The position numbers were made by a program, and so were the translations under genes. The notes below the pieces were generated by a model, which made no database searches, had not been told where the DNA came from, and was given only the letters and a program-made list of their open reading frames with translations. Shown here piece after piece: positions 33,230 through 34,556 of a stretch of DNA of 64,000 nucleotides; the stretch's first letter is position 1, and every line of letters begins with the position of its first letter. Origin of the DNA: Corallococcus sp. Z5C101001 (lineage in GTDB: Bacteria > Myxococcota > Myxococcia > Myxococcales > Myxococcaceae); the NCBI RefSeq assembly GCF_007352635.1, contig NZ_VKLU01000005.1:507940-571939 (forward strand). The letters are read 5' to 3'.

Positions 33230-33919
33230 CTAGCCCCGGGCGGTGCGGGCGTCGCGGCCCCGGGCGCGGGCGGCCTTGGAGAGCAGGTCGCTGCCCTTCT
33301 CCTCGCCCTTCATCCATTCCTTCATCGCAGGCACCACCTGCTTGCTCCAGGCGCGGCCCGCGCGCACGGTCAGGAAGTCCTGCACCAGCGTATCCACCAG
33401 GGCGGAGAGCTGCTCGGTCAGCTCCAGACGTTCGGAGAGCTGATCATCCTCCTCCTCGGTCATGAGCGCGGGCAGCTTGGCGGCGCGGATGTCCAGGAAC
33501 TCGGCATCCAGGGTGAGCTCGTATTCGCGCTCGCCGTGCGACAGCCGCAGCCGGGCCTGGGACACGAGCAGGCCCCGGTCCAGCGAGTGCCGCACCTGCT
33601 CCGAGTACGGCGCCAGCGTGCCCTTCGCGCTCATCTCCGTGACATCCCCCGCCACGCCGCGCAGCACCACGCGGCCCAGGTAGAGCACGGTGACGCCCGA
33701 GCCGTCGAACTCGGAGATGGGGTCGCCCGACTCCGAACGCCACAGCAGCCACGTCAGGAACTCGCGGCCCAGGTAGGCCCGGCCGCGCAGCAGCTGTTCG
33801 CGCGCCTGGCCCTTCTCGACCTCGGCCGCGTCCTTCTCCTCCTCGGTGGCGACGCCATCCACGCCCACGTCGCCCCGGGCGAACGCCGCCTCTTCCCTCG
33901 CCTGCTCACGCCTCGCCAT
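33230..33919 (-). CDS. RdgC-like protein, C-terminal half (possibly the 3' part of a frameshifted or split rdgC-like gene)
   Basis: 'EFLTWLLWRSESG' matches E. coli RdgC 'LTEWVRSGS', and the C-terminal 'LTEQLSALVDTLVQDFL' matches 'MTGELAALIQNLIEGL', both from memory. Its ATG at 33919 overlaps the upstream ORF by 14 nt. The reading frame is open back to 34036. Confidence 0.5.
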   Translation of the reverse strand: MARREQAREEAAFARGDVGVDGVATEEEKDAAEVEKGQAREQLLRGRAYLGREFLTWLLWRSESGDPISEFDGSGVTVLYLGRVVLRGVAGDVTEMSAKGTLAPYSEQVRHSLDRGLLVSQARLRLSHGEREYELTLDAEFLDIRAAKLPALMTEEEDDQLSERLELTEQLSALVDTLVQDFLTVRAGRAWSKQVVPAMKEWMKGEEKGSDLLSKAARARGRDARTARG

Positions 33920-34556
33920 GGCTGCCCTCCACCGAAGCCGTCGCCGGCAGGTCCAGGCCAATGAGCTCCGCGGTGGGGCCCAGGGCCTTCTCGTCGATGC
34001 CCGCGCGCTGCGCCATGGACGCGGGCGTGATGCCAATCACCTTCACCGCCAGGGCGCCCTCCAGCGCGACGGCGATCTCATCCACCGTCTTGCGCGACGC
34101 GGCCCAGATCTGCACCTGCTGCGTCTTCAGGTTCCACGTCACGTCCAGCACGCTGGTGCGGGGCACCGCGCGCTGGCGAAGCAGCTGCTTGAGCTCCGCG
34201 CGCTGCTTGTTCTTCTCCGCGCGGGCGGGCGGGCGGCCGTTCTCGTTGGCGAACGCGGCGGACCACTTGTCCAGCTCCGACTTCATCAGCGACGCGGGCA
34301 CCTTGAGCGTGTCGATGCGGAAGGCGAACAGGGCGTACTCGCCGTAGAAGAGGTGGGTGGTGGAGAACTCGGAGGCCTCCGGGTTCTCCAGCTCCACGAA
34401 ACCGGCGGCGCGCTCCTCCTCGGAGCGGCGGTCGATGGGCTCGAACGCATGGGACTTGAGCCCCTTGGTCAACCAGCGCTTCACGTCGGACGGCGCATCC
34501 TTGGCCGGCTCGGTCCGGAAGCGCGAAAAGGTCACGGCACCACGTAGGACAGGCAT
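33906..34556 (-). CDS. RdgC-like recombination-associated protein, N-terminal about two-thirds
   Basis: 'GAVTFSRFRT' matches RdgC 'WFKNLMVYRL'. 'ALFAFRIDTLKVPASLMKSEL' matches '[21 protein letters not shown]'. 'ARAEKNKQRAELKQLLRQRAVPRTSVLDVTWNLKTQQVQIWAASRKTVDEIAVALEGAL' matches '[64 protein letters not shown]'. Only the last 216 codons of track ORF 33906..36140 are credible. Confidence 0.55.
   Translation of the reverse strand: MPVLRGAVTFSRFRTEPAKDAPSDVKRWLTKGLKSHAFEPIDRRSEEERAAGFVELENPEASEFSTTHLFYGEYALFAFRIDTLKVPASLMKSELDKWSAAFANENGRPPARAEKNKQRAELKQLLRQRAVPRTSVLDVTWNLKTQQVQIWAASRKTVDEIAVALEGALAVKVIGITPASMAQRAGIDEKALGPTAELIGLDLPATASVEGSHGEA

Follow-up and report, generated by a model that had tools for sequence, protein, structure and literature searches.

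Two overlapping open reading frames (ORFs) in the genome of Corallococcus sp. Z5C101001 resemble different parts of the recombination-associated protein RdgC, which raises the question of whether an rdgC gene has been broken here by a frameshift or whether RdgC is encoded by two genes. The ORFs lie in a stretch of 64,000 nucleotides (nt) of contig NZ_VKLU01000005.1 (positions 507,940 to 571,939; assembly GCF_007352635.1), which was analysed as a whole and is referred to as the window. An earlier reading of the same DNA (the original prediction) favoured a +1/−1 frameshift, resulting from a sequencing error, a pseudogene or programmed frameshifting, and gave a genuinely two-gene RdgC as the alternative. 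Our survey of related loci supports the alternative and refutes the frameshift, since orthologues share the two-ORF layout with a conserved overlap. The locus comprises two genes, this structure is conserved, both genes are under purifying selection, and the fold of both parts is that of RdgC in a predicted structure. The best explanation, to which we assign a probability of roughly 85%, is a genuine and anciently fixed fission of an RdgC-like gene, in which the two halves form a coupled bicistron and their products re-associate into an RdgC-like ring that encircles DNA.

The two halves of RdgC are encoded by adjoining genes

The upstream gene, ORF1 (gene 1, rdgC-N), and the downstream gene, ORF2 (gene 2, rdgC-C), are located on the minus strand and overlap by 14 nt, in agreement with the overlapping pair of the original prediction (Table 1). 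The reading frame of ORF2 is +1 relative to that of ORF1.

To survey related loci, one genome per species was scanned with a search pattern derived from the LGREFLTWLLW stretch of ORF2. A relative of the C-half is present in 547 species genomes, and the locus figures given here describe the best 80 of these 547. In all 80 loci, the N-half gene is immediately upstream of the C-half gene, and in none of them are the two in one frame as a fused chain. The split loci come from Corallococcus, Myxococcus, Pyxidicoccus, Hyalangium, Archangium, Cystobacter, Vitiosangium, Anaeromyxobacter, Bradymonadales, Polyangia and Sandaracinus.

Consistent with the locus survey, the individual proteins have many homologues of matching size. 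Database searches gave 710 homologues of ORF2, the best 120 of which are all 206–239 amino acids (aa) long, with every named one designated ‘hypothetical’, and 283 homologues of ORF1, almost all of which are 208–229 aa long and annotated as RdgC. The GC content at third codon positions (GC3) is 0.93 for ORF1 and for ORF2, each in its own frame, in a window with an overall GC content of 70.7%. With hundreds of homologues for each ORF and such a GC3 in both, the two-ORF observation is far beyond chance.

The gene boundary coincides with an RdgC domain boundary

Profile searches identify ORF1 as a relative of RdgC. ORF1 matches the Pfam family PF04381 (RdgC) with a score of 38.9 bits (cut-off 25, E-value 8e-10), and residues 29–170 also match the phage family phrog_724, ‘exonuclease recombination-associated’, in PHROGs. 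A low-scoring phmmer alignment places ORF1 residues 31–170 on residues 25–159 of Escherichia coli RdgC. In poorly scoring alignments, R80, which is invariant, falls in a stretch aligned to the K70 region of RdgC, and R133 aligns with RdgC R122. All RdgC models of NCBIfam, including the PRK00321 family, score far under their cut-offs of 227–501 bits, the best reaching 35.8 bits.

For ORF2, every sequence route was negative. ORF2 has no match in Pfam, NCBIfam or PHROGs, the profile of its family has no match among PDB sequences, and hhalign found no link between that family and a single E. coli RdgC sequence. A conceptual fusion of ORF1 and ORF2 gained no profile coverage in Pfam or NCBIfam. The likeness of ORF2 to RdgC was reached through structure comparison alone. 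The tentative family call of the original prediction is thereby borne out, for ORF1 by the Pfam profile, to which ORF2 and the fused translation add nothing, and for ORF2 by structure. No further RdgC-like sequence was found within the window.

In the crystal structure of Pseudomonas aeruginosa RdgC, residues 1–73 and 121–167 form the centre domain, residues 74–120 the tip domain, and residues 168–306 the base domain; the ring is held together by interface A, formed by the tip and centre domains, and interface B, formed by the base domains (PMC1885664). The end of the RdgC match in ORF1 coincides with the centre/base boundary. Because the published domain limits match this end, the gene boundary is a domain boundary, and the cut is located in the inter-domain linker, at the equivalent of P. 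aeruginosa RdgC residues 167/168. Specifically, ORF1 accounts for about the first 55% of RdgC, with the centre and the tip domain, while ORF2 is, on the evidence of the predicted structure, the base domain, roughly 45%. The original prediction had thus placed the two parts correctly at the N- and C-terminus, while its fractions of two-thirds and one-third do not stand; its figure of about 80 extra residues between the homologous parts is close (ORF1 residues 171–216 and ORF2 residues 1–45).

Consistent with the domain assignment, the predicted structure of the pair is confidently folded for both halves and has the J-shaped three-domain fold of RdgC, with centre, tip and base. In two alignments, no stretch of the C-half family is more conserved than LGREFLTWLLW, which directly follows the variable linker.

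The two genes could be real and yet have separate roles, with ORF1 binding DNA as a module by itself and ORF2 serving as the partner of something else. Such a division would fit the high divergence of the base domain, the conserved head of ORF2, which is under purifying selection and has no counterpart in canonical RdgC, and a phage family, phrog_13439, that matches the N-half alone. We consider separate roles unlikely, as the genes adjoin in every locus across deep lineages, most junctions have the appearance of coupled ones, and structure prediction packs both parts into one RdgC-like protomer.

The junction has the anatomy of a translationally coupled bicistron

The junction in the window, with a GGAGG Shine–Dalgarno (SD) element, a spacing of 6 nt, an ATG and a 14-nt overlap with the ORF1 stop, has the layout of a translationally coupled bicistron, the putative coupling being read from sequence alone. 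The same type of junction, an SD element followed by an ATG that overlaps the stop codon, is present in 55 of the 80 loci, spanning Myxococcaceae, Archangiaceae, Anaeromyxobacter and related metagenome-assembled genomes (MAGs). Among these 55 loci, 46 overlap by 14 nt, five by 11 nt and four by 8 nt, and nearly all have the SD element 6 nt from the start codon; in L048, L050 and L051 this distance is 9–10 nt. The G(G)AGG/GAGG core is retained 5′ of the ORF2 start though the ORF1 residues encoded there vary, and Met1 of ORF2 is invariant. The junctions of distant Myxococcota, Bradymonadales and Polyangia have TGATG, gaps of 2–170 nt or an in-frame stop. Over all loci, the frame offset is +1 in 59, +2 in 17 and 0 in 4.

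In one Polyangiaceae MAG (L076, 2277..3773), the N-half frame is open across the C-half gene to the contig end, and its stop codon was therefore not located; a fault in the assembly or, in DNA rich in GC, a frame left open by chance may account for this.

Both frames of the window pair are open over 33906..34036, as the original prediction had noted. The openness of the ORF2 frame up to 34036 is incidental, because the GC peak in this segment is on the third codon position of ORF1, not of ORF2, and because a stop codon closes the ORF2 frame one codon 5′ of the ATG in 18 of the 55 loci with a window-type junction.

A programmed +1 frameshift in the overlap would yield one RdgC chain of full length, in place of the separate products or beside them. 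Throughout the Myxococcaceae/Archangiaceae/Anaeromyxobacter clade, the pair retains both its overlap and its +1 offset (59 loci at +1), and an SD-like element is located 5′ of the overlap; in prfB, +1 shifting is stimulated by an SD element. However, there is no conserved slippery sequence: the overlaps read GCGAAGCG, GCGAAGGG, TCGAAGCG, GGGAAGCG, GCGACGCG and others, and they vary in stop codon (TGA, TAG or TAA) as well as in length. In addition, an SD element 6 nt 5′ of an invariant Met1 is the geometry of initiation, and the closed ORF2 frame in 18 loci is at odds with shifting. The offsets of 0 or +2 and the gaps of up to 170 nt in distant lineages mean that function cannot depend on a fused product. 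The pair has neither the conserved shift site nor the conserved frame relation of prfB and dnaX. Programmed frameshifting in any form is very unlikely, and an obligatory programmed frameshift is rejected by the junction, offset and selection results together.

Both genes are under purifying selection

Ratios of nonsynonymous to synonymous substitution rates (dN/dS) were calculated by the Nei–Gojobori method; the extreme GC3 probably compresses dS, so the values are read only as being below 1. Against the closest species, dN/dS is 0.17 for ORF1 and 0.22–0.40 for ORF2, and it climbs to 0.3–0.7 at greater distances. The ORF2 head is also constrained, with values of 0.13–0.45 against all relatives except the distant L042 (0.48), and only the last ~24 residues of ORF2 seem largely unconstrained in most comparisons. 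Both genes are thus under purifying selection.

The selection on both halves leaves almost no room for an authentic pseudogene, in which an intact rdgC was inactivated by a frameshift and is now decaying. The high GC3 of each ORF, the conservation over the full length, the start codons kept across genera and the confidently folded predicted structure all argue against decay, and the orthologues show no scattered stops or indels. The C-half has no detectable similarity to RdgC profiles, as a decaying gene might, but this is not decay, because intact single-chain relatives show the same loss. A sequencing or assembly frameshift that artificially broke a single rdgC, for which the frames open over the same segment and the collinearity of the ORFs with single-chain homologues could be cited, is practically dismissed by the same two-gene layout in 80 of 80 independently assembled genomes, complete chromosomes included, by database entries of a 216-aa protein 100% identical to ORF1 in several Corallococcus, and by the conservation of start codon, SD element and overlap.

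The single-chain relatives inspected have contexts that look phage-like

An exhaustive search with the ORF2-family profile gave 1052 cluster representatives, which are either stand-alone C-halves of ~170–260 aa or single chains of 346–437 aa with the ORF2-like part at ~190–400. In their N-terminal halves, the single chains match the same part of the RdgC profile as ORF1 does. Single chains are a minority, accounting for 11 of the best 120 matches. Over its whole length, the concatenate of ORF1 and ORF2 is collinear with single-chain homologues, to which it is 49, 43 and 39% identical, and the split point in this alignment is a gap-rich linker just N-terminal to the invariant LGREFLTWL motif.

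Six single-chain gene contexts were inspected (L082, L083/L084, L085, L086, L087 and L088), and all of them look phage-like. They consist of small ORFs in close succession and in one orientation, with Phage_P22_Y8K6, HNH and AAA genes, or with Amidase_2 and Baseplate_J, or with methyltransferases and an SNF2 helicase, or they are part of a 51-kb IMG/VR contig; a scan of viral contigs gave one relative (L085, from IMG/VR). The single chain seems to go with a phage-like setting, as judged from six gene contexts and not from a survey.

A neighbour-joining tree, built on ~175 columns without support values and used solely for the interleaving of split and fused states, gathers the window clade into one split group, uniformly of offset +1, that has single-chain forms as its closest relatives. 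In other parts of the tree, split and single-chain states interleave, which suggests more than one event of fission or fusion. Exchange between phage and host, accompanied by fission or fusion, is possible.

The phage family phrog_13439 (181-position profile) matches the RdgC N-half only, so split or truncated RdgC-like genes may be present in phages too.

Features of the locus and neighbouring genes

Table 1. Positions of the gene pair, its segments and adjacent features in the window
Feature	Position	Strand	Remarks
ORF1, gene 1 (rdgC-N)	34556..33906	minus	216 aa; ATG start, TGA stop; N-terminus MPVLRGAVTFSRFR
ORF2, gene 2 (rdgC-C)	33919..33230	minus	229 aa; ATG start; N-terminus MARREQAREE
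Start/stop overlap	33906..33919	minus	14 nt, ATGGCGAGGCGTGA; ORF2 ATG within final ORF1 codons
Shine–Dalgarno element GGAGG	33926..33930	minus	6 nt 5′ of ORF2 ATG, within ORF1 3′ end
Pfam RdgC match in gene 1	34047..34472	minus	ORF1 residues 29–170 on profile positions 22–157 of 298
Match to phrog_13439	33909..34556		
ORF1 C-terminal tail			ORF1 residues 171–216 (46 residues); 171–200 modelled with confidence
ORF2 head			ORF2 residues 1–45; helical, conserved
ORF2 base-domain core			ORF2 residues about 46–205
LGREFLTWLLW motif	33740..33772	minus	ORF2 residues 50–60; columns invariant or nearly so
ORF2 basic tail			ORF2 residues 206–229; poorly constrained
Imperfect GC-rich inverted repeat	33150..33179	minus	CCCCCTCCC...GGAGCGGGGGG; just 3′ of ORF2 stop
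Major Vault Protein homologue	30770..33214	minus	listed as 814 aa; true start uncertain
Peptidase_S13 gene	34581..36254	plus	PBP4-type D-Ala-D-Ala carboxypeptidase
Prolyl oligopeptidase (S9) gene	36291..38471	plus	

Scans for a consensus sigma-70 promoter and an intrinsic terminator over 32900..34900 found nothing, such scans being uninformative in DNA of 71% GC. The inverted repeat downstream of ORF2 may fold into a hairpin like that of a terminator, though it has no T-run. Because the repeat is inside the N-terminal extension of the 814-aa ORF as listed, the real start of that ORF is probably further downstream.

The 814-aa ORF, directly downstream of the pair, is a homologue of Major Vault Protein, with Pfam scores of 153 bits for MVP_shoulder, 107 for Vault_2, 102 for Vault, 75 for Vault_3 and 25 for Vault_4. 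Bacterial homologues of Major Vault Protein, myxobacterial ones included, have already been reported (bioRxiv 10.1101/872010). We rejected this gene as a part of the unit, as it is nearby in 6 Corallococcus loci only, about 1.9 kb away. On the other side, the Peptidase_S13 gene is divergent from ORF1 and is a neighbour in 16 Myxococcaceae loci, and the S9 gene is next after it; both are ordinary chromosomal genes.

A model for the assembly of a two-gene RdgC ring

The anatomy of the junction suggests how the pair may work. A ribosome that ends translation of ORF1 can re-initiate on ORF2, because ORF2 has its own SD element and an ATG that overlaps the ORF1 stop; translational coupling of this kind would provide roughly matched amounts of the two subunits. 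The two polypeptides would then join non-covalently at the former centre/base junction and rebuild the J-shaped RdgC protomer, and the ORF1 tail (residues 171–200), together with the conserved ORF2 head, may stabilise this seam. A ring of four chains would arise from two of these protomers, with interface A (tip/centre) between the gene-1 subunits and interface B as a base–base β-sheet between the two gene-2 subunits. Such a ring would enclose double-stranded DNA and, as RdgC does, would act as a modulator of recombination that depends on RecA.

Several points weigh against this model. First, the assembly of ORF1 with ORF2, its stoichiometry, the binding of DNA and an effect on RecA are features that we infer. 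Second, the AlphaFold model of the concatenated pair speaks for compatibility with the fold, not for heteromer formation, because its alignment consists mostly of single-chain homologues and the two parts are covalently linked in it. Third, ~145 residues of the pair are outside the canonical RdgC fold, the conserved ORF2 head among them. Fourth, the base-domain sequence is too diverged to be detected by any RdgC profile, so the function of the ORF2 base domain may have diverged as well. Finally, Phe120 of P. aeruginosa RdgC, the key residue of interface A, aligns with Val131 of ORF1 in the low-scoring phmmer alignment.

In the boldest version of the model, which we regard as rather doubtful, the split is adaptive and not neutral. 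A four-chain ring would have four non-covalent seams instead of two, and in this version the centre/base seam could be a regulated gate through which the ring is loaded onto DNA or released from it, with the conserved ORF1 tail and ORF2 head as a latch. The split genes of chromosomes and the single-chain genes of phages would then reflect an anti-recombination or nucleoid-binding ring that was repeatedly exchanged between Myxococcota and their phages and re-engineered.

Significance and comparison with known systems

The reading of the locus as an ancient gene fission has several consequences. It corrects an easy mis-annotation, as the pair resembles a frameshifted gene. It provides an RdgC base-domain fold identity for a family present in at least 547 species genomes, the members of which are now ‘hypothetical’ and have no Pfam domain. 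The natural cut at the RdgC centre/base hinge offers a system for asking how the ring opens onto DNA for loading, a question left by Ha et al. (2007). The apparent contrast between a single chain in phage-like settings and a split form in chromosomes makes a small, clean case study of gene fission and fusion. Knowledge of recombination control is unchanged by the split pair, which is not a new kind of system. We found no earlier description of a split RdgC in Myxococcus or other myxobacteria in the searchable literature, which mostly excludes subscription journals; within that literature, the pair is a previously undescribed form of the known RdgC family.

Canonical RdgC (E. coli, PDB 2OWL; P. 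aeruginosa, PDB 2OWY; PF04381) is one chain of ~300 aa, whereas the window pair consists of two polypeptides (216 and 229 aa) and carries the ~145 extra residues. Canonical RdgC inhibits RecA functions and interacts genetically with priA and recFOR, whereas the pair is known here from its sequence and predicted fold. The closest full-length relatives of the pair are the ‘long’ single-chain RdgC-like proteins of 350–440 aa (P0244, P0246, P0396–P0402 and L085), which share 39–49% identity with it over both halves, the LGREFLTWL motif and the same half-profile Pfam and PHROG matches; they differ in being encoded by one reading frame in phage-like contexts, whereas the window pair is split and chromosomal. 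An RdgC-like fold is also present in lambda RexA, Iml3–Chl4 and CENP-L/CENP-N, to which the pair has much lower sequence and structural similarity than to RdgC. In each of these systems, a complete two-domain chain pairs with another, and none of them splits one protomer over two genes, as the window pair does.
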